Below the pieces are notes generated by a model that had not been told where the DNA came from, did no database searches, and saw only the letters and a list, made by a program, of their open reading frames with translations. Made by a program: the position numbers and the translations under genes. A DNA stretch of 64,000 bases from Escherichia coli (GTDB lineage: Bacteria; Pseudomonadota; Gammaproteobacteria; Enterobacterales; Enterobacteriaceae), in assembly GCF_003991155.1 (NCBI RefSeq), contig NZ_CP031293.1; one strand, 5' to 3'. Below, in pieces: positions 20,088-48,522 of this stretch. Every line of letters starts with the position of its first letter. The stretch's first letter is position 1.

Positions 20088-21015
20088 AATAACCATTTCT
20101 TCTGAATTACTGCAAATTTCACCGGAAGTACAGGATGCCATTAACAGTAAAAAACCTGTTGTTGCTCTCGAGTCAACAATTATCTCACATGGTATGCCTT
20201 TTCCTCAGAATGCTCAGACGGCTATTGAAGTCGAAGAAACTATACGTAAACACGGAGCAGTACCAGCCACCATTGCCGTTATTGGCGGTGTAATGAAAGT
20301 CGGGTTAAGTAAAGATGAGATTGAATTACTGGGTCGCGAAGGACATAACGTTACCAAAGTCAGTCGCCGGGATTTACCTTTCGTTATTGCTGAAGGAAAA
20401 CATGGTGCAACAACGGTAGCTTCAACCATGATTATTGCTGCTCTTGCCGGAATTAAAGTTTTTGCCACAGGAGGAATTGGCGGCGTTCATCGCGGTGCAG
20501 AACACACTTTTGATATTTCAGCCGACCTACAGGAACTGGCACATACTAATGTCACCGTGGTTTGTGCAGGCGCGAAATCCATTCTCGATTTAGGGTTAAC
20601 CACGGAATATTTAGAAACATTTGGTGTACCTTTAATTGGCTATCAGACAAGATCATTGCCGGCATTTTTTTGCCGCACCAGTCCGTTTGAGGTCAGTATA
20701 CGTCTGGACAGTGCAAAAGAGATTGCCCGCGCGATGGCAGTGAAATGGCAAACCGGCCTGAACGGTGGTCTGGTTGTTGCCAATCCGATTCCGGAAGCTT
20801 ACGCCATGGCGGAAGAGAAAATTAATGCAGCAATTGACCAGGCCGTAAAAGAAGCGGAAGTGCAGGGCATTACCGGTAAAGAAAGCACACCGTTCCTGCT
20901 GGCACGGGTGGCAGAATTAACCGGTGGTGACAGTCTGAAATCAAATATTCAGCTGGTATTCAACAACGCAGTTCTGGCCTGTGAGATAGCAAAAGAATAT
21001 CAACAAATTGTCTGA
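20080..21015 (+). CDS. psuG: Pseudouridine-5'-phosphate glycosidase, island paralogue of PsuG/YeiN
   Basis: 311 aa reading ...PVVALESTIISHGMPFPQNAQTAIEVEETIRKHGAVPATIAVIGG... It overlaps the psuK 3' end by 8 nt. Confidence 0.9.
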   Translation: MSEITISSELLQISPEVQDAINSKKPVVALESTIISHGMPFPQNAQTAIEVEETIRKHGAVPATIAVIGGVMKVGLSKDEIELLGREGHNVTKVSRRDLPFVIAEGKHGATTVASTMIIAALAGIKVFATGGIGGVHRGAEHTFDISADLQELAHTNVTVVCAGAKSILDLGLTTEYLETFGVPLIGYQTRSLPAFFCRTSPFEVSIRLDSAKEIARAMAVKWQTGLNGGLVVANPIPEAYAMAEEKINAAIDQAVKEAEVQGITGKESTPFLLARVAELTGGDSLKSNIQLVFNNAVLACEIAKEYQQIV

Positions 21016-21098
21016 TATAAATGAACGGGCAGTGTGAGGTCGCCCGAAATTACCTGAACCAGATTCCGTGTCTGGTTCAGGTATAAGGGGAGAGCATT

Positions 21099-22349: not shown

Positions 22350-22367
22350 AAAATACAATCCCGGGTG

Positions 22368-30646: not shown

Positions 30647-30737
30647 GATGCCACCTTTAGATGAAGGCTATTTTTATTATTGAGGATGTAGGGTAAGAGA
30701 GTGGCTAACATCCTTATAGCCACTCTGAGTGTTTTAA

Positions 30738-32153
30738 TTAAACTTCTTTCAGTTTTGCGGTGAAGTGACGCAATACTTTCGGTTCGTAGGTAAAGGTTAA
30801 CCCTTTAATATTCGCCGCGTTCTCTTTCACATGTTTAAAGGCTTCAATAATGAAGTCCATATGTGTTTGAGTATATGTTGCGCGCGGAATGGTTAAACGC
30901 AGCAGTTCAGCCGGGCATGGCAGTTGTTTACCGGTTTTCGGATCGCGGCCTAACAGGAAAGAGCCAATTTCTACCGCACGGATACCGGCGACTTTATACA
31001 GCTCGCAGGCCAGCGCCTGTGCCGGGAACTGATCTGCCGGGATATGCGGCAGTAGTTTACCGGCATCAACGAATGCCGCGTGACCGCCCGCCTGCTGGCA
31101 GACAACGCCAATCTCTTCCAGGCCATCGACCAGATACTGCACCTGCGCAATACGATAAGCCAGCCAGTCCAGATTCATGCCGTCATACAGACCTACCGCC
31201 AGACGCTCCATAGCGCCGCCTTCCAGGCCGCCATATGTCGGGAAGCCTTCCTGCACCACGCAAAGGGTTCTGCATTCGGTGTACACATCAAAGAAGCTGT
31301 CGTCTTTCATGCACAGCAGGCCGCCCATCGGCACCATCGCATCTTTCTTGGCGGACATCGCCAGCATATCGGCATATTTGTAGGTTTCGCGGGTGATTTG
31401 CTCGATGGTCCAGTCTTTGTATTCTGCTTCACGCTGCTTGATGAAATAGGCGTTTTCGGCAAAGCGTGCGGAGTCCATTACCACCGGAATATCGTATTTC
31501 TTCGCGATGCTGTACATCGCTTTTAAGTTTGCCAGTGAAACCGGCTGACCACCTGCGGAGTTACTGGTGATGGTTGCAACGATATACGGCACGTTATTCG
31601 GGCCAACTTCTTCAATACCGCGTTCTAATCCCTCAAGGTCAAAGTTGCCTTTAAAGTCGTAACGCACGCCCGTATCGAAGGCTTCTTTGATATAGACGTT
31701 ACGCACGGTACAGCCGTTAATCTGGCTATGGCCCTGCGTGGTATCAAAGAAATAGTTAGAGAACGCCACCATTTTGCTGCGATCCAGGCCTTTTTCCTGC
31801 TCGCGTTTTTTAATCAGTACCGGAATATAGATTTGCTCTGCACCACGGCCCTGGTGAGTCGGAATAGTGTATTGATAACCAAAGATATTTTTCACTGACT
31901 CGGCTAACGCGTAGTAGCTGCGGCTGCCGCTGTAAGCTTCGTCGCCGCGCATCATCGCGGCCTGCATACTCTGCGTCACCGCCCCGGTACCGCTGTCGGT
32001 CAGTAAATCGATAAACACATCTTCACTATCCAGCAGGAACGGGTTCATGCCGGCTTTAATAATTGCTTCTTCACGATAAGCGCGAGTGGTACGTTTTACT
32101 GGCTCAATAACACGAATGCGGAACGGTTCAGGGAGATGTTTAAAGTTTTCCAT
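30738..32153 (-). CDS. tnaA: Tryptophanase TnaA
   Basis: From [32 protein letters not shown]... it is 471 aa. The PLP-lysine region reads [12 protein letters not shown]. Confidence 0.95.
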
Positions 32154-32359
32154 TACGTAATCCTTCATTTATTTTAAGGACAGAAAATTACGGAGATATT
32201 GCAAATGCAATACCCGATAGTTCGCTAAAATATTTGCAAGAGACATCATTTATAAAAATGAATGATAGTCTTTACAAAAGCAGAAATAAGATATGCCAAA
32301 CAGACAGGTTAGATGGAATTCAATCTATTTGACAAAAATGATGGTTACAGAAAGGCAAG

Positions 32360-32434
32360 TTAAGGGTGGTGTTCAACAATCTTGTTGTCGATATTGAACC
32401 ATTTTGAGGTCACACATATATGTAAGATATTCAT
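32360..32434 (-). CDS. tnaC: tna operon leader peptide TnaC (24 codons), variant
   Basis: My own translation is MNILHICVTSKWFNIDNKIVEHHP followed by TAA. K-12 reads ...IVDHRP followed by TGA. W12, D16 and P24 are conserved. Confidence 0.9.
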   Translation of the reverse strand: MNILHICVTSKWFNIDNKIVEHHP

Positions 32435-33488: not shown

Positions 33489-34883
33489 TTAGCGAAGCCA
33501 GTTTTTCCGGCCTACGGCTACTCCCCGTAAGGCGTTCTCTGCGATGTTGTTGTCGATTTCCACCCAGCCATTGCTGCAGTACACGTTCAGGCCATCCCAC
33601 TGTTTCAGCAGGTATGCGAACGCTTTTGCCGTATCTGAGTGACGCGACAGTGTTTTCATCTGTTGCTGTATCCAGTCATACAGTGACTGCATCAGTGGCG
33701 CGGCTCTGGCTTTTCTTGCCGCCAGACGCTGTTCTGCTGAACAGCCCCGGACCTCTGCCTCGATGGCATACAGTTCACCGATACGCTGCAGGGCTTCCGT
33801 GGTGATGTAGGTGGGCGCTCTTGCATGCACATCGTGGATTTTTCTCCGGGCATGAGCCATACACGCGGCTTCCGTTATTCTGCCGGATTCGTATAACGCC
33901 CGGTAACCACCGTAAGCATCGGCCTGAAGCACACCGCTGTAACCGGCCAGGTGATTTTGTGGATGGATACCTTTCCGGTCCGGACTGTACGCGAACCAGA
34001 CCGCCGGGGGCATCTGTGAACCGGCGTTACGGTCATCACGGACGTAGACCCACAGCCGGGCTGTCCGGGTTTTACCGCTGCCCGGCTCCTGGACCGGGAC
34101 GGGGATATCATCAGCATGGACTTTACCGGGCATCAGCACATACTGGCGCAGGACGTCATACAGCGGCTCCAGCAGTTCAGCAACAGCACCTGTCCAGCGC
34201 CCCAGTGTGGCACGGCTCAGCTCCACTCCCTGACGACGGTATATTTCTGACTGGCGGTATAACGGCAGATGGTCTGCATATTTCCCGGTGACAACATGGG
34301 CCAGAAGCCCCGCTCCGGCATAACTGCGTGCAATGGGTTTTGAAGGTACTGGTGCCTGCACGATATGGTCGCACCGGCAACAGGCCTGTTTCGGACGTTG
34401 TGTTTCGATAACCTTAAAGGCGCTGCTGATAAGCTCCAGTTGCTCTGACACATCACATCCCAGAGAACTGAGTTCACCACCACAGGCAGGACAGCATTCC
34501 TCTTCCGGCCGGATAACCCGGGTTTCACGGGGAAGTGAGGCCGGTAACGGTTTACGGGCTGAAGACTGGCGCAGGGCGGATGGCAGTACCGGGTCATATT
34601 GCTCACCCAGCGTTTCCGCCATTTCTTCCTGAAGTGCGCTGATTCGCTCCTGTGCTTCCTGTATCTGCCGTTCGGTTTTTGCACGAAGTTTTTCTGAGCT
34701 TTTACCGAACTGCATACGTTGCAGTTTCGCAACCAGCGCCTTCAGCCGGTTGATTTCGGAAGCATAAGCCGCCACCCGCTGTGAGAGCAGGCGGTTGTAT
34801 TCAGCCATCTGGCGGATGGTGTCCTGTTGCGTCTGCAACAGTGCCCGCAGGCGGGCGTTCTCATGAGCAAGTGAGGTGTCCAT
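33489..34883 (-). pseudogene. IS66-family transposase TnpC, 3' end disrupted
   Basis: The 464-aa ORF ends ...[16 protein letters not shown], whereas family members continue ~50-60 aa past GRKNWLF. The downstream sequence keeps weak similarity in other frames. Confidence 0.7.
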
Positions 34884-34902
34884 ATCCTCACTTTACAACG
34901 GG

Positions 34903-35250
34903 TTATATGCGGATTCCAGCGCGTTCCGTTCGTTTCGGGTGCTTCCAGTTGATACCTTCAAGAAGCATGGATAACTGAGCCGGAGTAAGGTGCACCTTGC
35001 CGTCACGGGTGACTGGCCAGACGAAGCGGCCCCGCTCCAGGCGTTTGGTGAAGAGGCACAGTCCGTCACTGTCAGCCCACAACACTTTTATCTGGTCACC
35101 CCGGCGTCCGCGGAAGATGAACAGGTGTCCGGAGAACGGGTCATCCTTCAGGACGTTCTGAACTTTTGATGCCAGGCCGTTAAAGCCATTTCGCATATCG
35201 GTGATACCTGCAACCAGCCAGATACGCGAACCTGCAGGGAGAGATATCAT
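34903..35250 (-). CDS. IS66-family TnpB (orf2)
   Basis: 115 aa reading MISLPAGSRIWLVAGITDMRNGFNGLASKVQNVLKDDPFSGHLFIFRGRRGDQIKVLWAD. Confidence 0.9.
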   Translation of the reverse strand: MISLPAGSRIWLVAGITDMRNGFNGLASKVQNVLKDDPFSGHLFIFRGRRGDQIKVLWADSDGLCLFTKRLERGRFVWPVTRDGKVHLTPAQLSMLLEGINWKHPKRTERAGIRI

Positions 35251-35927
35251 CAGTGGCTGCTCCCTTTTATTTCGCGGATAAGTGTCTGTAATAACGCCGG
35301 CGTCAGTTTACCTTTAAGCCTGAGAGTTCCGGCCGGCAGAACCAGCTCACAACACAGACTGTCGGACGGTGTATTTATCTGCTCTGGTTCCTGTGCGGGG
35401 GCCGGGATTTTATTATCCGGCTCCGGCGTTAACGTCACGGGAAGCAGTGCCGGCATATTTTTTCCGGAAGGCAGCAGGCCACCTTTCCGGTATTGATGGC
35501 GCCAGTTGAAGAGCAGGTTATCGTTGATTCCGTTTTCCCGGGCGATCTGCGCCACACAGGCTCCGGGCTGCAGTGACTGCTCCACTAAGGCGATTTTAAA
35601 CTCATAAGGGAAGTTGGGCCGCCGGGGACGTTTTTTTACCACGGGGGCTTCGGATATAACGGTGCTTTCAGGACGTACGACTGGTACCGTGGAAAATTGT
35701 CCGTAAAGGCAGGCATCAAGTTCCTGCTCCGACATGCCTGCGGGCAAAGGCCACGAAAGGCCAGCTCTCCGAAAGCGCACGAACATACTACAAACTGTTG
35801 ATTTTGGTACACCCAGGCGACGCCCGGCCACAACCCGGGGTAAATGTTCTTCAAAGTGAAGACGTAAAGCTTCAGTGATCCAGGTCCGGTGTTTCATACG
35901 ATAGTGTCCATTAAAAATGATGGACAT
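35250..35927 (-). CDS. IS66-family TnpA (orf1), long form with an extra N-terminal HTH
   Basis: ...RRPNFPYEFKIALVEQSLQPGACVAQIARENGINDNLLFNWRHQYRKG... Its stop overlaps the tnpB start (ATGA). Confidence 0.8.
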   Translation of the reverse strand: MSIIFNGHYRMKHRTWITEALRLHFEEHLPRVVAGRRLGVPKSTVCSMFVRFRRAGLSWPLPAGMSEQELDACLYGQFSTVPVVRPESTVISEAPVVKKRPRRPNFPYEFKIALVEQSLQPGACVAQIARENGINDNLLFNWRHQYRKGGLLPSGKNMPALLPVTLTPEPDNKIPAPAQEPEQINTPSDSLCCELVLPAGTLRLKGKLTPALLQTLIREIKGSSH

Positions 35928-35980
35928 TATTTTTGTAGAGCCGGAGGAAACAGACCAGACGGTTTAAATGAGCCGGTTAC

Positions 35981-36251
35981 TTTCCCTCGCGCCATTGTTG
36001 TCGCCATTTGAACAACAGATTGGCGTTAATGCCATTTTCAAGAGCAAGTTTTGAGATGGATATCCCGGGTTCACAGGAGGCAGCAACGAGCTGCTGTTTA
36101 AATTCGGGAGGATAATTAGGGCAGCCTTTTCGCCTGCCGGGAGTCACATTTTTCTGCATATCTGACACTTTGGTTCCCACTACTTATTTGGTGGACACCA
36201 CTTTGTCTAATTCGTCAGATTCTGACCAGACGGTTCAGGCTGTACGCTTAC
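35981..36251 (-). mobile_element. Remnant (IRL plus 5' tnpA) of a second IS66-family element, cut by the insertion at 35980
   Basis: The terminal GTAAGCG reads on the minus strand ending at 36251. The 67-aa ORF (35977-36180) ...PPEFKQQLVAASCEPGISISKLALENGINANLLFKWRQQWREGK ends at a stop codon supplied by the inserted element's terminus. Confidence 0.7.
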
Positions 36252-36836
36252 GTAGAACGCAGGTTCGTTTCGGTTCAGGATCGCGACAGTGCCCCCTCAC
36301 CTTCAGCTACAGTTCCCATAGAATTTTTTTCAGGTCAGTAATACTGGCTGCTGTTGTTGTCAGGATTTGATAGCTCATAAGCCCCGTTTGTCTTATTGGT
36401 ATAAGAGCATCTTTAAAAGCACTCTTAAAAGTACTCGTGTTGAAAAAACAGCCAGAACAAATGAAGTATGGCTCTTTCCGACAACTCTCTAAAACGTTCT
36501 GTAACACATTCTGAGCGTTTTTACGTCAGTTAGGCACGCCGCTCAGTGCTTCTGAGCGGCCTTGTTGCCGCGATCTGTTGTCCTGATCTTGATAAATGAA
36601 CATCAATACGGCGTTCCGTCAGTGTTTACAATAACTCCCAATTCATAACTACTTTTAACACATTTGTGTGATTCCCCCTTTCTGCTGAAAATATAGTTAT
36701 TTCCAATATAATCAATGAGTTTTATTAATTTGTTGATTTTTTTTTTCATGTTTTTTTTGTGATAATTATCATTTGAATGTGAATGTTGCTCCTGAATAAT
36801 GTTTATCAAAGTTGTCTGGTACGAGGGAGAAATTTC

Positions 36837-38099
36837 ATGGCTATCATCATGGGGATCATCGCTGACGATTTTACTGGCGCGACTGATATTGCCTGCTTTA
36901 TGGCAGAGAATGGTTTTCGGGTTGCGCTGTTGCCCGGTTTGCATGCACTCACGCAGTCATGGGATGAAGAGGCTGATGCAATAGTCATTTCACTGAAAAG
37001 TCGTTCATTACCCGCGAATCAGGCAATTGAGCAGACTTTGCTAAGTTATCATTGGTTGCGTGACTGTGCGGGGGCGCAGCAGATCTATTTCAAATATTGC
37101 TCAACATTTGATTCCACTGCAGATGGCAATATCGGCCCGGTCAGCGATGCACTGATGAAGGTGATGGGCACACCTTATGTCGTGCATTGTCCCGCTTTGC
37201 CCCAAAATGGCCGAACAGTTATCCATGGACATCTTTTTGTTAACGGTATACCCCTTAACGAATCCGGCATGGAAAAACACCCCCTGAATCCAATGACCGA
37301 CACTAACCTGCTGCGCGTACTGGCTGCACAAACCCCCAATAGAGTTGGTAATCTTGATCTGAGGACAGTTCAACAGGGCGAGCAAGCCATCACCACCGCA
37401 CTTTCCCGTTGTCAGGCTGAAGGGAAGCAACACATTATTGTCGATACATTAACTGAAAATGATCTGCAAAGCCTGGCAAATGTATTACGCCATACACCTT
37501 TACTGGCTGGGGGATCCGGACTGGGTGGGGCGTTAGCCGCTTTTTTACAGCAACATCCTTATACGCCAGCCTCCGCGTTTCCCAATCCTGCCAGAACGGT
37601 AATCTTCTCCGGAAGTTGTTCAGTGATGAGTAATCGACAGGTGGATGCTTATAAATCGCATGCAGCCACGCAGTTGCTTGATGTTGCTCGTTGTCTGGAC
37701 GATGGCAATAGATATATCGATCAATTACTTGAATGGACAATTGCGCACATCAATGATCCGCTTGCTCCGTTGATTTACGCCACTCAACCTGCGGATGTGT
37801 TGAAATCTATACAGCAAACCTGGGGTGAACACGCGGCAAGTAAAGCCATTGAACAAACTTTTGCGCAGCTTAGCCAAAAATTGCAGGTCGCGGGTGTCAA
37901 CACTTTTATTGTTGCTGGGGGAGAAACTTCCGGGACTGTAGTGGAAGCGCTAAATGTGAAACGGCTAACAGTGGGGAGCACTATTACGCCGGGCGTACCA
38001 TGGGTTTTTTCGGCAGAACCGCCCCTGGCACTGGCGCTGAAATCTGGCAATTTTGGGGAGCCTGATTTTTTCATTAAGGCTCAGGAGCATGGATTATGA
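36837..38099 (+). CDS. DUF1537 four-carbon acid-sugar kinase (OtnK/YgbK-like)
   Basis: The start is trimmed to MAIIMGIIADDFTGATDIACFMAENGFRV, with a GAGGGAG Shine-Dalgarno. It is collinear with YgbK motifs (IADDFTGATD, YFKYCSTFDST..GNIGPV, GGETSG, LKSGNFG). Confidence 0.85.
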   Translation: MAIIMGIIADDFTGATDIACFMAENGFRVALLPGLHALTQSWDEEADAIVISLKSRSLPANQAIEQTLLSYHWLRDCAGAQQIYFKYCSTFDSTADGNIGPVSDALMKVMGTPYVVHCPALPQNGRTVIHGHLFVNGIPLNESGMEKHPLNPMTDTNLLRVLAAQTPNRVGNLDLRTVQQGEQAITTALSRCQAEGKQHIIVDTLTENDLQSLANVLRHTPLLAGGSGLGGALAAFLQQHPYTPASAFPNPARTVIFSGSCSVMSNRQVDAYKSHAATQLLDVARCLDDGNRYIDQLLEWTIAHINDPLAPLIYATQPADVLKSIQQTWGEHAASKAIEQTFAQLSQKLQVAGVNTFIVAGGETSGTVVEALNVKRLTVGSTITPGVPWVFSAEPPLALALKSGNFGEPDFFIKAQEHGL

Positions 38100-38734
38100 G
38101 TGAACTCATCGAACAAAAATTACGTGAACAACTCGTCTATTACGGGCGTTCGCTCTTTATGCGCGGTTTCAGTAGTGGCGGTTCCGGCAATATCAGCGTC
38201 AAACTGGCTGAAGACCGTTTTTTGGTCACGCCGACCAATTCCTGTCTTGGCGAGTTAGATAGTGAAAGAGTGAGTCTTATCGATATTCATGGCAACCATA
38301 TCAGTGGTGATAAGCCGTCAAAAGAGGTGCCTATGCATCTTGCCTGGTATCGACATCGTCCGAACTGTGGAGCGGTGGTACATCTGCACTCGCCATGGCT
38401 GACGGCACTTTCGTGTTTACCTTGCACAACACCAGAGAATTGCTTACCGCCGCTCACTCCCTATTACGTGATGCGTGTGGGGAAATTACCATTATTGCCT
38501 TATTTCAAACCAGGACATGAGGATATCGCTACGGCATTAAGCCATATAGCGGCCGACTCTACCGCAGCTCTGTTGGCGAATCATGGCCCCGTTGTCAGCG
38601 GAAGAACATTGCGCGAAGCGGTATTTAATGCCGAAGAGCTGGAAGACAGTGCCCGTATCTGGCTGACCTTAAAACCACTTGGCTATGTTCCTCTTTCGGC
38701 AAAAGACATCGCTGAACTGGAACAGGCCAGATGA
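38096..38734 (+). CDS. Class II aldolase/adducin-fold protein (OtnC/YgbL-like 3-oxo-tetronate 4-phosphate decarboxylase family)
   Basis: 212 aa reading ...GGSGNISVKL...FLVTPTNSCLGEL...HLHSPW...ANHGPVVSG. Its ATG overlaps the upstream stop (ATGA). Confidence 0.8.
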   Translation: MSELIEQKLREQLVYYGRSLFMRGFSSGGSGNISVKLAEDRFLVTPTNSCLGELDSERVSLIDIHGNHISGDKPSKEVPMHLAWYRHRPNCGAVVHLHSPWLTALSCLPCTTPENCLPPLTPYYVMRVGKLPLLPYFKPGHEDIATALSHIAADSTAALLANHGPVVSGRTLREAVFNAEELEDSARIWLTLKPLGYVPLSAKDIAELEQAR

Positions 38735-38749
38735 TAACGAGGTGAGAGG

Positions 38750-39556
38750 ATGATACCCGAGCAAAGGCGAGACTTTATTTACCGCTATGTCCATGAGAAA
38801 AACGTTGCTTCATTTAATGAACTGGCTGAGTTGATGAGCGTTTCGCATATGACAGTGCGTCGTGATATTCAATTACTGGAAGAAGAAGGCAAAGTTATTA
38901 CCATAAATGGCGGCGTTAAGCTGAACAACCAACTTAAATTGGAGTTACCGTGGCGAGAAAAAGCTGAACTGCATCATGATATTAAGCGTGACATGGGGCA
39001 GCTTGCTGCGATGTTGATCGAACCCGGGCAGACACTCTATTTAGATGCCGGAACCTCATTATTTGAGGTCGCAAAAGCAATCGTTGCCAGCCAGTGCTTT
39101 AATCTCACTATCGTGACAAATGATTTCTCTATCAGCCATTACCTGATGGATATGCAACATATCACGCTTTACCACACCGGGGGATTGGTAGATCAACGCA
39201 ATCGTTCTTGTTTGGGGAAAAGTGCAGCTGATTTTCTGCGCACGATTAATATCGATGTTGCATTTCTTAGCTCCTCTTCATGGGATACACAAAGAGGAAT
39301 GTCAACACCAAATGAAGGTAAAGCTACAGTGAAAGAGGCGGCGCTTACGGTCTCCCGTCGCCGCGTATTAGTGTGTGATAGCAGTAAATTCGGTAAATAC
39401 GGAATGTTCCATATATGCGAGCTCAGCCAATTGACCGATATCATTTCAGATAACCAGTTGCCTTTATCGGCGCAGGAAAGCATTACACAGCTGGGCGTGA
39501 AATTACATCTGGTTAATAGCCGGGAGGGAACGCAGCATGTTGAAGCTGGCGGCTAA
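38750..39556 (+). CDS. DeoR-family transcriptional regulator (YgbI-like)
   Basis: N-terminal HTH FNELAELMSVSHMTVRRDIQLLEEEGKV plus a DeoR C-terminal sugar-phosphate sensor domain. 268 aa. Confidence 0.85.
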   Translation: MIPEQRRDFIYRYVHEKNVASFNELAELMSVSHMTVRRDIQLLEEEGKVITINGGVKLNNQLKLELPWREKAELHHDIKRDMGQLAAMLIEPGQTLYLDAGTSLFEVAKAIVASQCFNLTIVTNDFSISHYLMDMQHITLYHTGGLVDQRNRSCLGKSAADFLRTINIDVAFLSSSSWDTQRGMSTPNEGKATVKEAALTVSRRRVLVCDSSKFGKYGMFHICELSQLTDIISDNQLPLSAQESITQLGVKLHLVNSREGTQHVEAGG

Positions 39557-40313
39557 TCTCGACTGGTTGTTCACAGAACTGCCGATGTCTGCACGGTTTC
39601 ATGCAGCCAGACGGGAGGGGTTTCGTGCTGTTGAAGGAATGTTTTTCTGTCAGCATTCTCTGGATATGCTGAGAATTGCGCAGCAAGAATCGGGAATGAG
39701 CGTGGTGCTGATGAATGCTCCGGCAGGTGACTGGCTACGAGGTGAGCGTGGCCTGGCTGCACTTCCTGGCCGCGATGATGAATACCTGAACAGTTTGCTC
39801 ATTGCCCGCCGATATGCAGGGACGCTGGGATGCAGGCAGGTTCATGTTATGGCGGGCCTTCGGGATCACTCTGTGACAGAAGATGAACAACTGGAGTTAC
39901 TGGTTAATCGCTTGTGCATAGCCTGCGATGTGCTGGCGGAAAAAGATATTACAGTATTAATCGAACCCCTGAATTCTGAAGATATGCCTGGCTATATTAT
40001 TAATAGCCTTCCTCGAGCAAAAGATATTATCCGGCGGGTTTCTCACCAAAATATTGGTTTGCAGTTTGATATTTATCATTGCCAGAAAATTCATGGTAAT
40101 GTCACCCAAAATATAGATAAATATTTATCAATAGTTAAGCATTTTCAGATTGCCTCTGTGCCTGGTCGCCACGAACCAGGTTCTGGTGAGCTAAATGATA
40201 CGTGGATATTAAATTTTATTAATCAAAAAAACTTCCAGGGCTGGATTGGCTGTGAGTATAAACCTTCCACACTGACAACCGAGTCATTACGCTGGATGAA
40301 ACCATATTTATAA
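39537..40313 (+). CDS. Hydroxypyruvate-isomerase-fold TIM-barrel isomerase (OtnI/YgbM/Hyi-like)
   Basis: MLKLAANLDWLFTELPMSARFHAARREGFRAVE... is the typical Hyi-family N-terminus. 258 aa. It overlaps the DeoR gene by 20 nt. Confidence 0.8.
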   Translation: MLKLAANLDWLFTELPMSARFHAARREGFRAVEGMFFCQHSLDMLRIAQQESGMSVVLMNAPAGDWLRGERGLAALPGRDDEYLNSLLIARRYAGTLGCRQVHVMAGLRDHSVTEDEQLELLVNRLCIACDVLAEKDITVLIEPLNSEDMPGYIINSLPRAKDIIRRVSHQNIGLQFDIYHCQKIHGNVTQNIDKYLSIVKHFQIASVPGRHEPGSGELNDTWILNFINQKNFQGWIGCEYKPSTLTTESLRWMKPYL

Positions 40314-40334
40314 AATCTTTTTCTGGAGGAAAAT

Positions 40335-41147
40335 ATGTCGGATACCGTCATAATTTCGTTGGCACCTGTGGCCGCAGACTGCACCAGAGTCATACCCGAA
40401 GAATTGGCGCAGGAAATTTTGGCTTGCGTTGAATATGGAGCAGCAATTGTTCATTTACACGTTCGTGATAAGCAAGGCAAGTTAACGCCAGATACAACCG
40501 ATTTCCAGTCAACCATTGATCTCGTCAGACATCAATCAGACTTAATTATTCAGGCTTCTACGGGCGGAGTCTCTGCCATGTCAATAGCCGAGCGTTGCGC
40601 GCCTCTGGACTGCCCTGGCGTTGAAATGGCGTCGCTGAATGTAGGGTCGGTGAACCTTGGTGATGCCGTCTACGCTAATCCAACACCGGATGTCGAATAT
40701 TGTTCACAGCAAATTACCGCGCGTAGTATTGTTCCTGAATTTGAAGTGTTTGAAATTGGAATGGTTAATAATATTTTAACCCTCAATGAAAAGATAAAAT
40801 TCAGAAACCCCATGTTATTTAATATTGTACTTGGTCATAGAGGAAGTTCTCCGGCGACAATAGATGCATTAATTGCGATGCGCAGTATGATCCCGCGAGA
40901 TGCATTATGGGGTATTACTCACTTTGGCAGAAAGAATTTTGATGTTATTGCTGCTGCGGTAGCTATGGGAGCTAGCGAGGTCAGAATTGGTTTTGAAGAT
41001 AGTTATTATTTAAGTGCAGAGGAGATGGCGGAACAAAATTATCAGCAAGTTAAAAAACTCGCCAGACTTATTCGTAGTATGGATAAACAAGTGGCCTCAC
41101 CGGAAATTGCCCGACGGATATTAAATATCCCAATCCGGCAGCAATGA
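40335..41147 (+). CDS. BKACE-family enzyme (3-keto-5-aminohexanoate cleavage enzyme-like, DUF849)
   Basis: 270 aa reading ...IISLAPVAAD...AAIVHLHVRDKQGKLTPD...IIQASTGG..., the DUF849 signature as I recall it. Confidence 0.7.
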   Translation: MSDTVIISLAPVAADCTRVIPEELAQEILACVEYGAAIVHLHVRDKQGKLTPDTTDFQSTIDLVRHQSDLIIQASTGGVSAMSIAERCAPLDCPGVEMASLNVGSVNLGDAVYANPTPDVEYCSQQITARSIVPEFEVFEIGMVNNILTLNEKIKFRNPMLFNIVLGHRGSSPATIDALIAMRSMIPRDALWGITHFGRKNFDVIAAAVAMGASEVRIGFEDSYYLSAEEMAEQNYQQVKKLARLIRSMDKQVASPEIARRILNIPIRQQ

Positions 41148-41168
41148 CGACAGACAGGACATTTTACT

Positions 41169-42479
41169 ATGACTATAACAACCCTAATACAAAAAGCAGG
41201 ACTTACAATCTGTATAGCTGGCGGTGTACTCGCGGCAACAGGCGGGTTGATGCAATCCGCTGTGCTCTGGCAACCTGGATTGGTGATGCTTACTGCAGGC
41301 TTTGCCCTCGGTGCTGGTTACTGGCCGATACTTCGAAGTTATCAATTCACGTTATGGATTATCGCAGGTTTCGTGGCTGCGATGACCTGGTCGATGGATT
41401 TGATTGTCTGGGGCGGGTTTAACATTACTCACAAATGGATCGTGTTTTTAGTCATTCAGGCAACGATGTTCAGTATGGGTACCAAACTGACGATTCAGGA
41501 TTTTATCGATGTTGCCAAAATGCCATGGGCGGTGTTTATTGGCACCTTCTGCCACTTTGTGATTATGCCGTTGCTGGGGCTAACCATTACGCTGTTATTT
41601 GATTTTCCGCCAGAAGTTGCGGTGGGGATCCTGCTCATAGGTGCCTGCCCTAGCGGTTTATCATCAACTGTTATGGTTTATATCGCTAACGCGAACCTCG
41701 CGCTGGCGGTATCAATCGCCGCAGTTTCTACGCTGGCAGCAACGGTTATGACGCCGTTGTGGGTAAATTTGCTGGCTGGCTCCATGATTGACATCCAACT
41801 TACCGCAATGGTTATGGACGTGGTGAAAATTGTCCTTATACCAATTGGTGCAGCAATTTTGCATGACTACCTGAAAACGTACGCTGGAGTTCGAGGTCGA
41901 CGAACCGTGCAGCTTCTCGCCGGGATCTGCGCCCTGTGGCTAATTTACATGAGCTCTGGTGGTTGGGACTATCTCTTTGACAACGCCAGTGCAGACGTAC
42001 AAATGTATGCCGTGGTACTGAACTTTGTCACGGGTGGCATTGTATGGGCGTTGTTCTATAACTGGCTGTACAGTCGCGTGGAAGGCATTCAAAAGATTAT
42101 GCCAACCATCTCTATGATTGGGATCATCTTCTTTACCACCACCGCTGCGGCAGCTGGTCGTGATAACCTGTTGCAGGTTGGTTTCCTGCTTTGTTTCGCC
42201 ATGTTGTTGCATAACCTTGGCGGTTTCCTGATTGGCTATCTGATGAGTCGCTGGATATTCCGCATGGACGAACAATCGTCCCGTACCGTAGCCTTTGAAG
42301 TGGGATTGCAAAACGGAGGTATGGCGTCAGGTCTGGCAGCGGCAATGGGCAAACTGGCTACAGTTGGCCTTGCCTCTGCAGTCATGACACCTCTCGGCAA
42401 TGTGAGTGGTTCGCTGTTGGCAAACTACTGGCGCAAAAAAGACGCTCGTAAAGCACAGACTGCGAATAAAGACAAATAG
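41169..42479 (+). CDS. BASS-fold (bile acid:Na+ symporter family) permease with an N-terminal extension
   Basis: 436-aa polytopic protein. The motif GACPSGLSSTVMVYIANANLALAVS resembles the BASS CPGG..SNV...A.GN..LS motif. Confidence 0.65.
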   Translation: MTITTLIQKAGLTICIAGGVLAATGGLMQSAVLWQPGLVMLTAGFALGAGYWPILRSYQFTLWIIAGFVAAMTWSMDLIVWGGFNITHKWIVFLVIQATMFSMGTKLTIQDFIDVAKMPWAVFIGTFCHFVIMPLLGLTITLLFDFPPEVAVGILLIGACPSGLSSTVMVYIANANLALAVSIAAVSTLAATVMTPLWVNLLAGSMIDIQLTAMVMDVVKIVLIPIGAAILHDYLKTYAGVRGRRTVQLLAGICALWLIYMSSGGWDYLFDNASADVQMYAVVLNFVTGGIVWALFYNWLYSRVEGIQKIMPTISMIGIIFFTTTAAAAGRDNLLQVGFLLCFAMLLHNLGGFLIGYLMSRWIFRMDEQSSRTVAFEVGLQNGGMASGLAAAMGKLATVGLASAVMTPLGNVSGSLLANYWRKKDARKAQTANKDK

Positions 42480-42514
42480 TCTGCCTGTTGTAACCTTTCA
42501 AAAGGAAACTCAAT

Positions 42515-42934
42515 ATGACGACATTGACCCTGAAACAAGCATTGCTTGCAGTAGAGTATGCGCTTGATCTTGCAGTGCAACAATATGCTGGCCGTCCTTT
42601 AAGTGTGGCAGTATGCGATGTTAATGGTGAATTGCTGAGCTTTGCCCGCATGGATAGAGCCAAACTGTTAACTATTGAATTAACGCAGCGTAAAGCACGA
42701 ACCAGTAGTCGTCTGGGCTGTACGACAGCAGCATTCTTACAGCGTCTACAAAAAGAGCAACTTGATATCAGCTATTTTGGAGATCCCCGGTTTACCGCAT
42801 TACCAGGAGGGATCCCTATTCTGGTTAAAGGAAAATGCATTGGTGCTGTTGCTGTGGGGGGATTATCCGCACGAGAAGATCATGATGCGGCACAGGCTGT
42901 CGCAGATAAACTGCTTGAGGAGATGACCAAATGA
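42515..42934 (+). CDS. GlcG/HbpS-like (DUF336) protein
   Basis: 139 aa reading ...LPGGIPILVKGKCIGAVAVGGLSAREDHDAAQA, the typical DUF336 C-terminal motif. Confidence 0.75.
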   Translation: MTTLTLKQALLAVEYALDLAVQQYAGRPLSVAVCDVNGELLSFARMDRAKLLTIELTQRKARTSSRLGCTTAAFLQRLQKEQLDISYFGDPRFTALPGGIPILVKGKCIGAVAVGGLSAREDHDAAQAVADKLLEEMTK

Positions 42935-43581
42935 AAAAAATAGCCATGCTTCACACCAGTTCAGCCACGCTTGCGGTGATGCAACAACTGATAGGCGATA
43001 TCATGCCTGAGGCTGAAGTGATGCATCTGGTTGAGGAGTCTATGATTAAGCAGGTGATGAAAGCGGGCGGTGTTACGCCAGATATCGCCGCACGGATCGC
43101 TGATTACATACGGATCGCTGAAAAAGCCGACTGCGATATTTTCATTACCGCTTGTTCATCAATTGGTACTGCTGTCGAACAGTGTCAATTTATGACTTCA
43201 GTACAACTGGCACGGATTGACTGTGCGATGGTGGATGAAGCAATCAACAAAGGGGAACACATTGCTGTGCTGGCAACGGTGGCCACAACGCTGAAACCGA
43301 CGCTTGATTTTGTCCGGCGAAAAGTTCAGGAAAGTGGAAAACAGCGGATTATTACACCTGTTTTAATGGAAGAAGCCTTCCATGCGTTATTGAATGGTGA
43401 TATGGGAACGCATGACCGCATTGTGAGTGAAGGATTACAAAAGGCCTTTGGGCAGGCAGATGTTATTATGTTAGCGCAGGCATCGATGGCACGGGTGCTG
43501 CAAAATATGCCTGAGCCTCCGGTTCCGGTATTAACATCGCCAGAAAGCGGTATTCGCTGGTTGAAAACATTCGCGAGTTAA
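42931..43581 (+). CDS. Asp/Glu/hydantoin-racemase-fold protein
   Basis: 216 aa with a Rossmann-like start KKIAMLHTSSAT and a candidate catalytic Cys in ITACSSIG. The second canonical Cys position reads LAQASM, so there is no second Cys. ATGA overlap with the upstream gene. Confidence 0.6.
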   Translation: MKKIAMLHTSSATLAVMQQLIGDIMPEAEVMHLVEESMIKQVMKAGGVTPDIAARIADYIRIAEKADCDIFITACSSIGTAVEQCQFMTSVQLARIDCAMVDEAINKGEHIAVLATVATTLKPTLDFVRRKVQESGKQRIITPVLMEEAFHALLNGDMGTHDRIVSEGLQKAFGQADVIMLAQASMARVLQNMPEPPVPVLTSPESGIRWLKTFAS

Positions 43582-44174
43582 GTCAGGTATAGTTTCTATA
43601 TTAAAGACGTTTACACATAATGGTGTACAGGCCCATTCAGAAACGGAACTGGGAATTTATTAACGGATAATCCGGAAACGTATTAAATGGCAGAAGGTAA
43701 CTACTTTCTGCCATTTCACAGACAGGATGTACATATTAATCGGCCATGATGGTTGACATAAAAAATGCATCGGCAGTGATGTGGCAAGTTTTTCCCGGAC
43801 AATGTTTTTCTTCATCCCACTTGCAGAAAATATATAATATTATATTTTATATAACATTTTCTAACTCATTGAATACACTTGCAAATCTTCTCATTCTTAC
43901 TTAGAAATATTATTAATTTTAACGTTCTTTGTTGAATGTTTGTTTGGTTACAGCCATCTAATTTTTTAAATGCACAGTATCTGTGGATAACTTTGCGTAA
44001 ACACTGGGGACAGAGCTCGTTGAACCAGAGAAAGCACGCATGAAAACAAAATACTCATTCTTTAACCATTCTGTATAAGATCAGATGTCAGATCTGCTCA
44101 ATTCCGCTTTCCCGGTCACTGACTCGCTACGCTCGATCGTTCGGTTGCGGCGAGCGGAGTCTCCTTTCTCAAAA

Positions 44175-44800
44175 TCAGGCTTCGTGCATCTGGTCACAAA
44201 CCCGTATATCAATCATCATTGATGAGAAATTATCTTTATGAGGGCGTTTTTTTGGTTTCAGTTTTGCACGGAACCAGGAGATTTTTGGGAGTTGTTTTAT
44301 GTATGTTGTAAATAAAATTTTAATATTGACATCTACTGTACGTGCATAGAGTACGCCGGTGACCAACGTCAGCATTCCACTGTTCCAGTAACTAATTAAC
44401 GTAAGTGAAGTTATCGAGGAAGCAATACTGGATGGAGAAGTCGTCCTTGAGGTATTCACTTTCCTTTCGTTCTGCCCATTAGTGGACAGCTAACTAGTGG
44501 CAGGACATCGGAGTACAGCACCTTCCCGTTGTTATTTATCAGCACGGCAGCTTTCTGGTTATTGACGAGCACAGTTTTCACGCCGCCGCCAAAGTTGTGG
44601 AAGACTCGCACCAGTGACTCATGGGTATGTTCAGCATCCTGTATGGGGCAGCAAAGAGATAGAAGCGACGTGAGAACCCCCTGCGTATTAGTCGCGAAGT
44701 TAATGCAGCATCGTTGTCTGACCAGTACCCCAGTCATGCTGGAGCTGGTAATCCGGCTGAGTTTTGAAGCGAACCGTTTTCTTCGATTTCCGTCTGGGAA
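44175..44800 (-). pseudogene. Degraded IS21-family istA
   Basis: ...THESLVRVFHNFGGGVKTVLVNNQKAAV...GRTKGK, followed by a stop and more similarity, resembles the family pattern H..AF..FGGVP..VL.DN.KTAV...RA.TKGKVE. Confidence 0.6.
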
Positions 44801-44929
44801 GTAATCAGACTCAGCACGGACAAAAATTGCAGCGCCCGGATGGCACGGGTAATGGTCAGATTACCGGATGCGGATTAGGTGCCGCGTAGTGAAGCGCGCC
44901 GGATTCAGAGTCGCTAGTATGGTCATACA

Positions 44930-45140
44930 GCGAAGGAAAGCCGCCAATTTTTGTGCCGGACGTGGAATATACAGCGAATGCTGATGTAAAAGGCGCTCGT
45001 AATATTTTAGCTGCGGGACATACTGTGCTTGCCAGGGAAGGGATGGTGCAGTCAGACCACCCGTTGAAGCGAAATGAACCTGAACCATACGACAACCTGA
45101 AAGTAGCAGGAATCCACGCCCTGAAGGACGTGGAGGAAGT
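44930..45140 (+). pseudogene. C-terminal remnant of an IS200/IS605-family tnpB
   Basis: ...YTANADVKGARNILAAGHTVLAREGMVQSDHPLKRNEPEP resembles the TnpB tail NADVNAA.NILAAGH.VLA.GE. Confidence 0.55.
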
Positions 45141-45983: not shown

Positions 45984-46756
45984 ATGAAAATACTCATTGC
46001 AGGGGCAACCGGAAGTATTGGTCTTCATGTCGTGAATACCGCTATTGAAATGGGTCATCAGCCCGTGGCGCTGGTCAGAAATAAACGCAAAGTAAAATCT
46101 CTTCCTCGTGGAACAGATGTTTTTTACGGCGATGTTTCAATGCCGGAAACACTCACCGAATTGCCGAAAGATATTGATGCCATCATCTTCACTCTCGGTT
46201 CTGATGGCCAGGGGCGTATTGGTGCCAGAGCGATCGATTACGGAGGAGTGCGTAATATTTTGCGAATATTCAGGGATACACCTGTTCGTATCAGCTAATG
46301 ACCACGATTGGCGTGACTGAGCGGCTCAGCACTTGGAATCAACGCACTGAGGTTCATGACAGGAAAAGACGTGCCGAGCGTCTGGTCAGGGCCAGCGGTC
46401 ATCCCTATATTATCGTCCGGCCCGGCTGGTTTGATTACAACAATGATGATGAACACAGGATCGTTATGCTTCAGGGGGATCGTCGCCATGCAGGAACACC
46501 GGAAGATGGTGTGATATCCCGGGAGCAAATCGCCCAGGTTCTGGTCAGTGCCCTGACCAACGACGAGGCAAAAAATAAAACGTTCGAGCTGGTGGCTGAA
46601 CGAGGTGAAGCACCACAGGATCTTACCCCACTGTTTGCAGAACTGCAGACTGATGATGCACAAAAAAATGATGGGGTTCTGGACATAGACAATATGCAGC
46701 TGAGAGAAGAACCGGAGTGCATTATTAACGAGCTGAACCTGTATTCAAAAAATTAA
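45984..46756 (+). pseudogene. NAD(P)-binding NmrA/SDR-like oxidoreductase, split by a 1-nt frameshift
   Basis: MKILIAGATGSIGLH (a GxxGxxG motif) ...PVRIS stops at 46296-46298. The sequence continues as MTTIGVTER... in the +2 frame. Restoring one T in agc(t)taatg gives a continuous ~256-aa protein. Confidence 0.75.
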
Positions 46757-47541: not shown

Positions 47542-48038
47542 TAGTGTTTTATGTTCAGATAATGCCCGATGACTTTGTCATGCAGCTCCACCGATTTTGA
47601 AAACGACAGCGACTTCCGTCCCAGCCGTGCCAGGTGCTGCCTCAGATTCAGGTTATGCCGCTCAATTCGCTGCGTATATCGCTTGCTGATTACGTGCAGC
47701 TTTCCCTTCAGGCGGGATTCATACAGCGGCCAGCCATCCGTCATCCATATCACCACGTCAAAGGGTGACAGCAGGCTCATAAGACGCCCCAGCGTCGCCA
47801 TAGTGCGTTCACCGAATACGTGCGCAACAACCGTCTTCCGGAGCCTGTCATACGCGTAAAACAGCCAGCGCTGGCGCGATTTAGCCCCGACGTATCCCCA
47901 CTGTTCGTCCATTTCCGCGCAGACGATGACGTCACTGCCCGGCTGTATGCGCGAGGTTACCGACTGCGGCCTGAGTTTTTTAAATGGCGGAAAATCGTGT
48001 TGAGGCCAACGCCCATAATGCGGGCGGTTGCCCGGCAT
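47535..48038 (-). CDS. insB: IS1 InsB reading frame (expressed as the InsAB' frameshift fusion)
   Basis: ...[40 protein letters not shown]... matches IS1 InsB. Confidence 0.9.
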
Positions 48039-48232
48039 CCAACGCCATTCATGGCCATATCAATGATTTTCTGGTGCGTACCGGGTTGAGAAGCGGTGTA
48101 AGTGAACTGCAGTTGCCATGTTTTACGGCAATGAGAGCAGAGATAGCGCTGATGTCCGGCGGTGCTTTTGCCGTTACGCACCACTCCGTCAGTAGCTGAA
48201 CAGGAGGGACAGCTGATAGAAACAGAAGCCAC
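47957..48232 (-). CDS. insA: IS1 InsA
   Basis: 91 aa starting [43 protein letters not shown]... Confidence 0.95.
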
Positions 48233-48522
48233 TGGAGCACCTCAAAAACACCATCATACACTAAATCAGTAAGTTGGCAGCATCACCGAAATATAGAAAC
48301 GCGGAAAGGAGAAAAAAACTTCACCAGCCCATGTCTTAAGTTCTGTCAGTATGGCTACAGCCTGTTTGCTGAGTGGCACAAGGTGTGGTGTTCGAATCTT
48401 GGTTCCCCAATGAGAGTTCAGGCGGTGTGGGCAAATAAAAAAGAAAACATAAATAAAACCATCCGACCGTTGGTGGGGCTGGATGGTTATTCATTATTTC
48501 TATGTCACTGAACTTTCATTCA

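Follow-up and report, generated by a model that had tools for sequence, protein, structure and literature searches.

The 64,000-nucleotide stretch of Escherichia coli DNA analyzed here (contig NZ_CP031293.1 of assembly GCF_003991155.1; hereafter the window) carries, at positions 36837-43581 of the forward strand, eight genes that we propose import and degrade aceric acid. Aceric acid (3-C-carboxy-5-deoxy-L-xylose) is a branched acid sugar that occurs only in side chain B of the plant cell-wall polysaccharide rhamnogalacturonan II (RG-II). Judging from the genes beside which homologues occur in other genomes, the scavenging of free aceric acid is a fairly probable function; the reactions of the individual enzymes and the order of the steps we infer with lower confidence than the substrate. 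The locus reads as an acid-sugar catabolic operon that would reuse the end-steps of the tetronate (Otn) pathway behind a new upper module. An earlier reading of the same DNA (hereafter the original prediction) had suggested another point of entry to tetronate metabolism, or else an altogether different substrate, and the evidence, in the form of aceric-acid-linked homologues, leads there.

All eight open reading frames (ORFs) were found intact and co-directional when the window was checked, in the order K-C-R-I-B-T-G-X. Gene K (36837-38099) is predicted to encode an OtnK-type DUF1537 acid-sugar kinase (3-oxo-tetronate 4-kinase; PF07005 and PF17042), which scores 510 bits on NF043035 (3-oxo-tetronate kinase; cut-off 350) and 134 bits on the OiaK model NF042436 (cut-off 700); its start at 36837 is that of RefSeq/PGAP, with otnK as the PGAP name, and a GAGGGAG ribosome-binding site precedes it. 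Gene C (38096-38734) is predicted to encode an OtnC-type protein of the class II aldolase fold (3-oxo-tetronate-4-phosphate decarboxylase, yielding dihydroxyacetone phosphate (DHAP) and CO2; NF043034, 289 bits, cut-off 250; at most 127 bits on aldolase models), R (38750-39556) a YgbI-like repressor of the DeoR/GlpR family (PF08220 and PF00455; 261 bits on NF040890, below its cut-off of 400), and I (39537-40313) an alpha-hydroxy-keto-acid isomerase of the Hyi/OtnI clade with a xylose-isomerase-like TIM barrel (AP_endonuc_2). For the latter, OtnI is the best model, and the OtnI (282 bits, cut-off 325) and Hyi (275 bits, cut-off 353) scores are both sub-threshold; sugar-epimerase models give at most 56 bits. 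The remaining four genes are predicted to encode a BKACE-family Zn TIM-barrel enzyme as putative C-C lyase (B, 40335-41147; PF05853, 234 bits), a BASS/SBF-family Na+-coupled permease of 436 aa as putative aceric acid importer (T, 41169-42479; PF01758), a GlcG/HbpS-like (DUF336) protein (G, 42515-42934; PF03928), and a divergent Asp/Glu-racemase-fold protein with one cysteine as putative isomerase (X, 42931-43581; PF01177, 60 bits). The RefSeq gene names for the operon are generic.

The coordinates and junctions given in the original prediction were confirmed from the sequence: ATGA overlaps join K to C (38096-38099) and G to X (42931-42934), R and I overlap by 20 nt (39537-39556), and the remaining intergenic gaps measure 15, 21, 21 and 35 nt. 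The eight genes probably form one operon with the DeoR-type gene inside, as had been supposed. The proteins K, C, R and I share 48, 52, 45 and 38% identity with YgbK, YgbL, YgbI and YgbM of E. coli K-12, respectively, which agrees with the earlier recognition of OtnK, OtnC and an OtnI-like isomerase in this locus. A YgbJ/LtnD-type dehydrogenase and a homologue of the GntP permease YgbN had both been noted as absent; neither was found by tblastn anywhere in the 64-kb window, where the transporter of the operon is the BASS protein, and both are missing from every cassette-type locus surveyed. Profile searches detected no RuBisCO-like protein (RLP) among the eight operon genes.

The exact K-C-R-I-B-T-G-X order, without the dehydrogenase, was found with unrelated flanks in 23 other Enterobacterales genomes in a survey of one genome per species, so that the gene order does recur outside E. 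coli. These genomes include Citrobacter, the Klebsiella oxytoca complex, Trabulsiella, Enterobacter, Enterobacillus, Yersinia, Edaphovirga, Acerihabitans, Gilliamella and Budvicia; in five further survey genomes one or two genes were missing in ORF calling, or the cassette was broken by a contig end. BKACE homologues with 64-87% identity lead to the same eight-gene order in Klebsiella, Yersinia frederiksenii and Budvicia; the cassette sits beside sucABCD in Klebsiella and between glp genes and rpoH in Budvicia. No YgbJ-type dehydrogenase gene lies within 10 kb of any enterobacterial cassette-type locus, and the only YgbJ-like matches (about 30% identity) in loci seeded with BKACE were from Firmicutes and Propionivibrio. 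By this comparison the cassette is a conserved unit, far beyond chance. It looks like two fused modules, because K, C, R and I resemble the lower-pathway proteins YgbK, YgbL, YgbI and YgbM (38-52% identity) and because R-B-T-G-X stands alone in Winslowiella and B-G-X in Propionivibrio. In alphaproteobacterial metagenome-assembled genomes and in Brenneria/Symbiopectobacterium the order is shuffled, or a TRAP transporter is present instead of BASS. Many of the hosts are associated with plants, pectin or the gut (K. oxytoca complex, Brenneria, Symbiopectobacterium, Gilliamella, Acerihabitans and 'Ca. Galacturonibacter'). In Yersinia only (L005:4900-6150 in Yersinia frederiksenii, and L035-L037; surveyed loci are designated by L numbers), a gene of the Zn-alcohol-dehydrogenase family and a mannose-type phosphotransferase system with a SorC regulator lie upstream of otnK and end about 300 bp from it; these genes were not seen in the other genera.

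Of the 80 loci that were collected through homology to BKACE, 71 have X no more than 10 kb from the BKACE gene, and loci with both B and X come from Enterobacterales, Beta- and Alphaproteobacteria, Desulfovibrio, Brachyspira, Paenibacillus, Lachnospiraceae and Oscillospiraceae. The conserved core, as judged from gene neighborhoods, is the pair of BKACE and racemase-fold protein, not OtnK/C/I. The Zn ligands of B (H40, H42 and E221) align with His46, His48 and Glu230 of Kce (2Y7D) and are invariant in 14 clade members; the residues E137, D222, S75 and R217, which align with Glu143, Asp231, Ser82 and Arg226 of Kce, are invariant as well (the roles of the catalytic residues of Kce were reportedly established by Bellinzoni et al. 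in 2011). The one replacement is that of Kce Tyr145, implicated in the CoA-dependent retro-Claisen step, by Phe139, which is invariant in the clade; the same Tyr-to-Phe change is found in BsfD of flavophos biosynthesis, a BKACE homologue with demonstrated non-canonical chemistry. Genes for CoA-transferase, thiolase or acetoacetate utilization are not co-conserved with B across the loci. The original prediction had considered cleavage of 3-oxo-tetronate with acetyl-CoA by the BKACE enzyme; this is not borne out, as the universal partner of B is X rather than OtnK/C/I, no CoA or acetoacetate genes accompany B, the tyrosine is changed, and an RLP takes the same slot in other phyla. A deoxyribonate-type logic (oxidation by a short-chain dehydrogenase/reductase (SDR), then cleavage with acetyl-CoA) was likewise rejected, for there is no dehydrogenase and there are no CoA-handling genes.

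X is the sole enzyme without an assigned function that is common to all three locus architectures found (the enterobacterial cassette and the Firmicutes and RLP loci described below). It has no match in NCBIfam (June 2026), which holds no model for it, and a sequence search of the PDB gave no significant homologue. The AlphaFold2 model (pLDDT 92.5) has a two-domain racemase fold, and the top Foldseek matches are Asp/Glu racemases (TM 0.76-0.78, about 15% identity). The claim that X keeps only one of the two canonical cysteines stands: Cys75, in a C-S-S motif, is invariant in 78 family members, and the second catalytic-cysteine site is occupied by an invariant Gln183-x-Ser185-Met186, which follows strand 178-181 at the N-terminus of helix 185-191. 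Aligned as a family to E. coli YgeA with hhalign (probability 1%), X pairs its C75 motif with the second cysteine motif of YgeA; this pairing reflects the internal pseudo-symmetry of the fold and is uninformative. A role of X as an arylmalonate-decarboxylase-like enzyme on a malonate was rejected, since a malonate-type intermediate has no place in the route and the slot of X in the RLP architecture calls for an isomerase. Paralogues of X with 42-45% identity are also found on three metagenome contigs (L103, L106 and L107), beside radical-SAM and URO-D-like proteins, not beside kinase or BASS genes.

The link to aceric acid comes from the more distant relatives. Seventeen Firmicutes loci combine X, a divergent DUF1537 kinase and B with a GH127 gene, and the GH127 gene adjoins X in 15 of them; the B homologues of Firmicutes that adjoin X, kinase and aceric-acid-hydrolase-like GH127 are 50-53% identical to B. 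The 15 GH127 proteins that were tested all hit NF049879, 'aceric acid hydrolase', and no other model (best E-value 4e-232), and the best PDB sequence match of the Firmicutes GH127 is 5MQO (526 bits), as against 265 bits for the beta-L-arabinofuranosidase HypBA1; BT1003 is the one GH127 enzyme characterized as an aceric acid hydrolase (PMC10850190). The Firmicutes neighborhoods also contain GH78 and GH106 rhamnosidase, PF13204 apiosidase-like, RhaA, GH2, GH42, GH29 and SASA esterase genes and sugar ABC transporters, together with a FucI-like isomerase, a split transketolase and an FGGY kinase (an apiose-type module). As predicted from its annotation, this gene set is a toolkit for consuming the trisaccharide aceric acid-alpha1,3-rhamnose-alpha1,3-apiose. 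During growth on RG-II, wild-type Bacteroides thetaiotaomicron secretes an aceric acid-rhamnose-apiose trisaccharide (10-50% of total; bioRxiv 10.64898/2026.03.13.711244). A variant with a TRAP-type transporter is present in five Firmicutes loci (L050, L051, L068, L075 and L091), which contain, in this order, X, DctPQM, GntR, a small cupin, in some cases the kinase, and BKACE (features at L050:10821-11705 and L091:9587-9940); L050, L051 and L068 have no kinase and have a reductase just under the GarR cut-off (392.5 versus 397 bits; 2-hydroxy-3-oxopropionate reductase). The TRAP-type variant suggests another downstream fate of the C4 product in fermenters.

A third architecture was found by a metagenome scan with the X alignment. 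Contigs from soil, marine and freshwater samples contain, in constant order, an RLP, a DUF1537 kinase, a racemase-fold protein (40-41% identical to X of the window) and a BASS permease (43-49% identical to T), often with a GH127 gene ahead of the RLP and with GH2, GH78-like, GH106 and BT0996-like genes around. On the 1.43-Mb contig L137, the GH127 protein scores 1167.9 bits on the aceric acid hydrolase model, for which the equivalog cut-off is 950, and the best model for the kinase is OiaK (379 bits). In L110, L134 and L159 the apiose-type transketolase module comes after RLP-kinase-X-BASS. The Bacteroidota isolate Rufibacter tibetensis has a plasmid-borne RLP-kinase-X-BASS-pectinesterase set beside GH28, polysaccharide lyase and sialidase-family genes. 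The best model for this RLP clade (L137:7468-8712; L159:7253-8497; L175:9326-10573 in Rufibacter tibetensis) is OiaX, with 513-522 bits against a cut-off of 700; in NCBIfam the RLP, the OiaK-like kinase and B all match only sub-threshold. The clade adjoins aceric acid hydrolase and probably has a function new for RLPs, with the phosphate of a branched beta-keto acid as substrate. X occurs with an RLP in 32 metagenome loci, no locus has both RLP and BKACE, and no RLP was found in the 90 BKACE-anchored loci (L002-L091); because the two never co-occur, each seems to be an alternative to the other for breaking a C-C bond of one branched beta-keto acid. In L110:962-3252 and L159:1346-3733, genes for two CaiB-type CoA-transferases in tandem, for a GFO/IDH oxidoreductase and for a FucP-like permease lie just upstream of RLP-kinase-X-BASS and the apiose-type module; these genes may serve the catabolism of another RG-II sugar, e.g. 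methyl-fucose.

The permease T is about 120 aa longer than typical BASS members (about 310 aa), and its profile matches fall into two stretches; the extension is common to the whole T clade (median 448 aa), including the aceric-acid-hydrolase-linked relatives. The 43-49% identical BASS proteins follow X in the RLP-kinase-X-BASS loci beside aceric acid hydrolase. Only in Proteobacteria does G accompany B and X. Pathways that generate aldehydes repeatedly include DUF336 proteins, and it is conceivable by analogy that G binds an aldehyde, a link to acetaldehyde being speculative; the DUF336 member EfgA is a formaldehyde sensor (PMC8153426).

For the degradation of aceric acid, which when viewed from its carboxyl group is a tetruronic acid with a 1-hydroxyethyl group on C2, the following scheme is proposed. 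The acid would be imported by T, and the aldose would be isomerised by X to the 2-ketose HOCH2-CO-C(OH)(COO-)-CH(OH)CH3, a beta-keto acid; this product, 2-(1-hydroxyethyl)-3-oxo-tetronate, is the methyl homologue of 3-oxo-isoapionate. B would then remove the C4-C5 arm by a retro-aldol-type cleavage to yield acetaldehyde and 2- or 3-oxo-tetronate, I would interconvert 2-oxo- and 3-oxo-tetronate, K would phosphorylate C4, and C would decarboxylate the phosphate to DHAP and CO2, with R as the repressor of the operon. The predicted net reaction is aceric acid + ATP -> DHAP + CO2 + acetaldehyde + ADP. No dehydrogenase would be needed, because the substrate is already at the aldehyde/keto-acid oxidation level. 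X is assigned as the isomerase because it is the only enzyme left in the RLP architecture to make the substrate of an OiaK-type kinase, and a single catalytic base suffices for an isomerisation, in line with the missing second cysteine. Because the ketose has a quaternary alpha-carbon, the canonical alpha-deprotonation of BKACE enzymes would be impossible; the same Zn-bound enolate could be reached through retro-aldol loss of acetaldehyde, leaving 3-oxo-tetronate or its 2-oxo tautomer. A C4 oxo-tetronate is favored as the product of B because K and C pass the OtnK and OtnC cut-offs and I belongs to the Hyi/OtnI clade, and the fusion of a dehydrogenase-less otn lower module to B-T-G-X would be explained if the product of B is the substrate of OtnI/K/C.

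Several observations weigh against this reading. No aceric acid hydrolase or other pectin glycosidase is encoded in the E. coli island or in any enterobacterial locus, the link to aceric acid is drawn from homologues with 30-53% identity, and the Firmicutes GH127 proteins are below the equivalog cut-off (731 bits versus 950 for the protein of L008). For B. thetaiotaomicron, the secretion of the trisaccharide, not the arrival of free aceric acid at enterobacteria, is what the source shows (bioRxiv 10.64898/2026.03.13.711244). B keeps every canonical catalytic BKACE residue except the tyrosine, which leaves an acetyl-CoA-dependent reaction conceivable, and the kinases of the three architectures represent three DUF1537 subfamilies, whose phosphorylated intermediate may differ. 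The scheme does not strictly need I and gives G no role, and the cupin and the GarR-like reductase of some Firmicutes TRAP-type loci have no place in it. Paralogues of X (about 38-45% identical) are encoded in unrelated contexts, namely on a Sinorhizobium meliloti plasmid and in L103, L106 and L107; the S. meliloti case calls for caution in inferring function at 38% identity. With these points taken into account, we are moderately confident of aceric acid as the substrate, an assignment that stands on homologues of X, T and B being linked in genomes to aceric acid hydrolase genes. The scheme in full, i.e. a first route for aceric acid with two new chemistries (X as a single-cysteine, cofactor-free aldose-ketose isomerase, and B as a CoA-independent retro-aldol BKACE that feeds OtnI/K/C), a parallel route with a new RLP decarboxylase in other phyla, and cross-feeding by enterobacteria, is tentative, and we think it less likely than not to hold throughout.

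The same substrate and net reaction are also compatible with other enzyme roles, in which X would make the ketose, K would phosphorylate it (as OiaK does), B would decarboxylate, with a role analogous to that of OiaX, I would epimerise a 5-deoxy-pentulose 1-phosphate, and C would act as a FucA-like aldolase to give DHAP and acetaldehyde. Such a kinase-first order gives every enzyme a role and agrees with the class II aldolase fold of C; it is in keeping, too, with the mutual exclusion of B and the OiaX-like RLP in one pathway slot and with the OiaK-like kinase of the RLP architecture, which must act ahead of the C-C cleavage. The profile scores speak for the other order, however: K and C exceed the thresholds of the OtnK and OtnC models and share 48-52% identity with YgbK/L, whereas K reaches only 134 bits on OiaK and C at most 127 bits on aldolases, and I groups with the Hyi/OtnI clade, not with sugar epimerases. 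In addition, going by the Kce structure, BKACE enzymes chelate the carboxylate on Zn, which disfavors its loss. On these predicted protein classes the kinase-first order fits less well than the retro-aldol-first order, and we regard it as unlikely.

A different organic acid as the substrate, i.e. a keto or uronic acid from pectin or plants such as 3-deoxy-D-lyxo-heptulosaric acid (Dha), or a C5/C6 2-keto acid, would leave B as a canonical BKACE that forms acetoacetate and acyl-CoA with acetyl-CoA, and the Otn module acting on a C4-C6 3-keto acid. The enteric loci have no glycosidase that would name the substrate, B retains the full set of Kce Zn ligands together with the catalytic Glu, Asp, Ser and Arg, BKACE acts on acid-sugar-derived beta-keto acids in deoxyribonate catabolism (bioRxiv 10.1101/205583), and OtnK/OtnC homologues take C5/C6 3-keto acids in vitro (PMC12994016). 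Such a pathway is nevertheless quite unlikely in our view, for there is no dehydrogenase to make the beta-keto acid, the CoA-transferase, thiolase and acetoacetate genes are not co-conserved, B has the Tyr-to-Phe change, and the nearest outside relatives of X, T and B adjoin aceric acid hydrolase in RG-II-type loci. Ascorbate/2,3-diketogulonate, Dha, 3-deoxy-D-manno-octulosonic acid (Kdo), 2-ketogluconate and apionate were weighed as substrates on paper. Dha and Kdo are possible, but the adjacent glycosidase is of the aceric acid hydrolase type; apionate is disfavored, with apiose dehydrogenase, lactonase and ApnO absent. Very improbable is a decayed L-threonate/D-erythronate (otn/ygb) locus, in which the dehydrogenase and GntP were lost to events of the flanking insertion sequences (IS) and the four extra genes are passengers, although the operon is located in a mosaic island rich in IS and pseudogene fragments, a frameshifted SDR oxidoreductase pseudogene (45984-46756, +; RefSeq annotation) is found 2.4 kb downstream, and an SDR-type L-threonate 3-dehydrogenase is now known (PMC12994016). 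Because the same dehydrogenase-less eight-gene order recurs in 23 species with unrelated flanks, in IS-free chromosomal contexts, and is kept in Klebsiella, Citrobacter, Yersinia, Budvicia, Gilliamella and others, the cassette is not, by this comparative evidence, a decayed otn locus, and the loss scenario that the original prediction had held against itself is contradicted; further, no YgbJ homologue lies within 10 kb of the enterobacterial cassette-type loci, all eight ORFs are intact, and the junctions are translationally coupled. The SDR pseudogene was also rejected as the missing dehydrogenase: it is cut off from the operon by RepA and TnpB debris, it was not seen in the annotated flanks of the cassette in Klebsiella, Yersinia and Budvicia, and it has no specific NCBIfam match.

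Upstream of the operon, a promoter/operator region (36756-36800, +) is predicted from a promoter-like site and from conservation across genera. The site, TTGAAT-16-AATAAT at 36773-36800, has its -35 element at 36773-36778 and its -10 element at 36795-36800, and a conserved GAATGTGAA overlaps the -35 TTGAAT; a CRP-like TGTGA-N6-TCAT (36758-36772), centered about 42 nt before the likely start, is a candidate class II CRP site that overlaps the promoter. In an alignment of the 260 nt 5' of otnK from 14 Enterobacterales loci, the block TTTGTGA..TCAT..GAATGTGAA..CTGAATAAT is kept across genera, and repeated TTCACA/TGTGAA blocks are kept from E. coli to Yersinia, Gilliamella and Budvicia. The same alignment contains a conserved upstream element, TTAACACATTTGTGTGA (36655-36671, +; TTCACA-N6/7-TGTGA in relatives), which provides candidate DeoR operator half-sites. 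From these sequence elements we infer a promoter that is catabolite-activated (CRP) and DeoR-repressed. About 105 nt past the last stop codon of the operon begins a terminator-like hairpin (43686-43716, +; RNA fold) with a 14-bp stem and -18.8 kcal/mol, which is followed by a T-rich TTTCAC.

The operon is located in a mosaic island of about 45 kb at tRNA-Sec (selC) of the E. coli chromosome. Of 5426 complete E. coli genomes, 21 have the 7.4-kb operon segment with 100% identity, always in the chromosome, and no near-identical operon DNA was found on plasmids. For the flanks, the RefSeq features of the identical region in NZ_CP029747.1 were mapped onto the window. The locus had been described as bracketed by IS, which holds for the upstream side, with a truncated IS66-family element (about 33495-36159, -; ISCro1-like tnpC fragment, tnpB, tnpA and a short transposase ORF), but not for the downstream side, where only pseudogene scraps and no intact IS are present (44395-45084; a hypothetical fragment, an IncFII RepA fragment and an InsQ/TnpB fragment). 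A tyrosine integrase gene (47746-48927, -) adjoins tRNA-Sec (49223-49317, -) and marks the island boundary; the other end is near setC/yicL, at about position 4000 of the window. The island also bears CP4-44-like genes (CbtA/YeeU toxin-antitoxin, antirestriction and RadC), pseudouridine kinase, glycosidase and NupC genes (about 19150-22350), and a whole tryptophanase operon, tnaC-tnaA-tnaB (29399-32434, -), flanked by IS110/IS66 fragments and by melA and bgl-phosphotransferase pseudogene scraps.

RG-II is present in the cell walls of all vascular plants and is a nutrient of the gut microbiota, and its depolymerisation has been mapped enzyme by enzyme; the fate of aceric acid is not described in the searchable literature. 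A full-text literature search turned up no report of how aceric acid is catabolized or of these genes in combination, though a subscription journal may hold a description, and no link was found in it among aceric acid, RG-II, DUF1537, BKACE and this gene set; the NetSyn paper on BKACE contexts makes no mention of this gene context. In the literature, then, we met no characterized pathway with this gene set, in agreement with the original prediction. If the proposal is correct, it names a transporter, a regulator and enzymes for aceric acid, with two or three versions of the pathway across phyla, and adds new reaction types to the racemase fold, to BKACE and to RuBisCO-like proteins; the lower pathway OtnI/K/C would be reusable under a new upper module, by which the dehydrogenase becomes unnecessary. 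In the gut or on plants, rare lineages of E. coli and many Klebsiella, Citrobacter and Yersinia would then cross-feed on a pectin sugar that primary degraders of RG-II set free, and cross-feeding on pectin debris is suggested as a niche trait of cassette carriers, including those with the mobile selC island in E. coli.

Of the known systems, the tetronate pathway (LtnD/DenD, OtnI, OtnK and OtnC; ygbIJKLMN in E. coli) was described by Zhang et al. (2016, PNAS), as summarized in PMC12994016. It shares with the window operon the OtnK and OtnC types, the OtnI-clade isomerase, the YgbI-like DeoR regulator and, as the likely end products, DHAP and CO2. In contrast, the operon and its cassette relatives have neither LtnD/DenD nor GntP, the operon adds four conserved genes (BKACE, BASS, DUF336 and racemase-fold), and the proposed C6 branched aldose acid would enter by isomerisation and C-C cleavage, not by oxidation. 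The catabolism of D-apionate, which reportedly proceeds through ApnO, OiaK and the RuBisCO-like OiaX (Carter et al. are said to have reported it in Nat Chem Biol in 2018; see also PMC12994016), resembles the proposed route in that a branched RG-II sugar acid would give a 2-substituted 3-oxo-tetronate, with phosphorylation by a DUF1537 kinase and breakage of a beta-keto acid; moreover, the window-operon relatives in L137 and Rufibacter have OiaK-like and OiaX-like proteins beside X and BASS. The window operon differs from it by an OtnK-type kinase, by BKACE and OtnC in place of the RLP, and by the lack of an oxidoisomerase, whose entry step X would take; the carboxyl group of the proposed substrate is on the branch carbon.

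Compared with the BKACE family (Kce 2Y7D, the BKACE of the deoxyribonate pathway of Price et al., and BsfD; the DUF849 family and Kce are said to have been treated by Bastard et al. in 2014), B is a Zn TIM barrel with the same His-His-Glu ligands and Glu/Asp/Ser/Arg set, and presumably, by analogy, it binds a beta-keto acid through Zn. Unlike Kce, B has an invariant Phe in place of Tyr145 (as in BsfD) and no linked acetoacetate or acyl-CoA genes, and its proposed substrate has a quaternary alpha-carbon, so that a retro-aldol step or a decarboxylation would replace the canonical first step. With the Asp/Glu/hydantoin racemases, a superfamily in which arylmalonate decarboxylase and E. coli YgeA, for example, have one cysteine, X shares the two-domain fold, a cysteine at a helix N-terminus and a predicted cofactor-free mode of action; it differs by its low identity (about 15%) to solved members and by Gln-x-Ser-Met at the site of the second cysteine, and the aldose-ketose isomerisation of a sugar acid, proposed here for X, is not known for the racemase fold. 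The RG-II utilisation loci of Bacteroides thetaiotaomicron, including the aceric acid hydrolase BT1003, were reportedly described by Ndeh et al. in 2017; the known polysaccharide utilisation loci for RG-II explain the release of aceric acid, not its catabolism. The E. coli cassette differs from them by the lack of a glycosidase and would scavenge the free monosaccharide, whereas in Firmicutes, Bacteroidota and uncultured bacteria the homologues of X, kinase, B or RLP, and BASS are encoded with BT1003-like GH127, GH78/GH106, BT0996-like and apiosidase-like genes, in the manner of the B. thetaiotaomicron loci.

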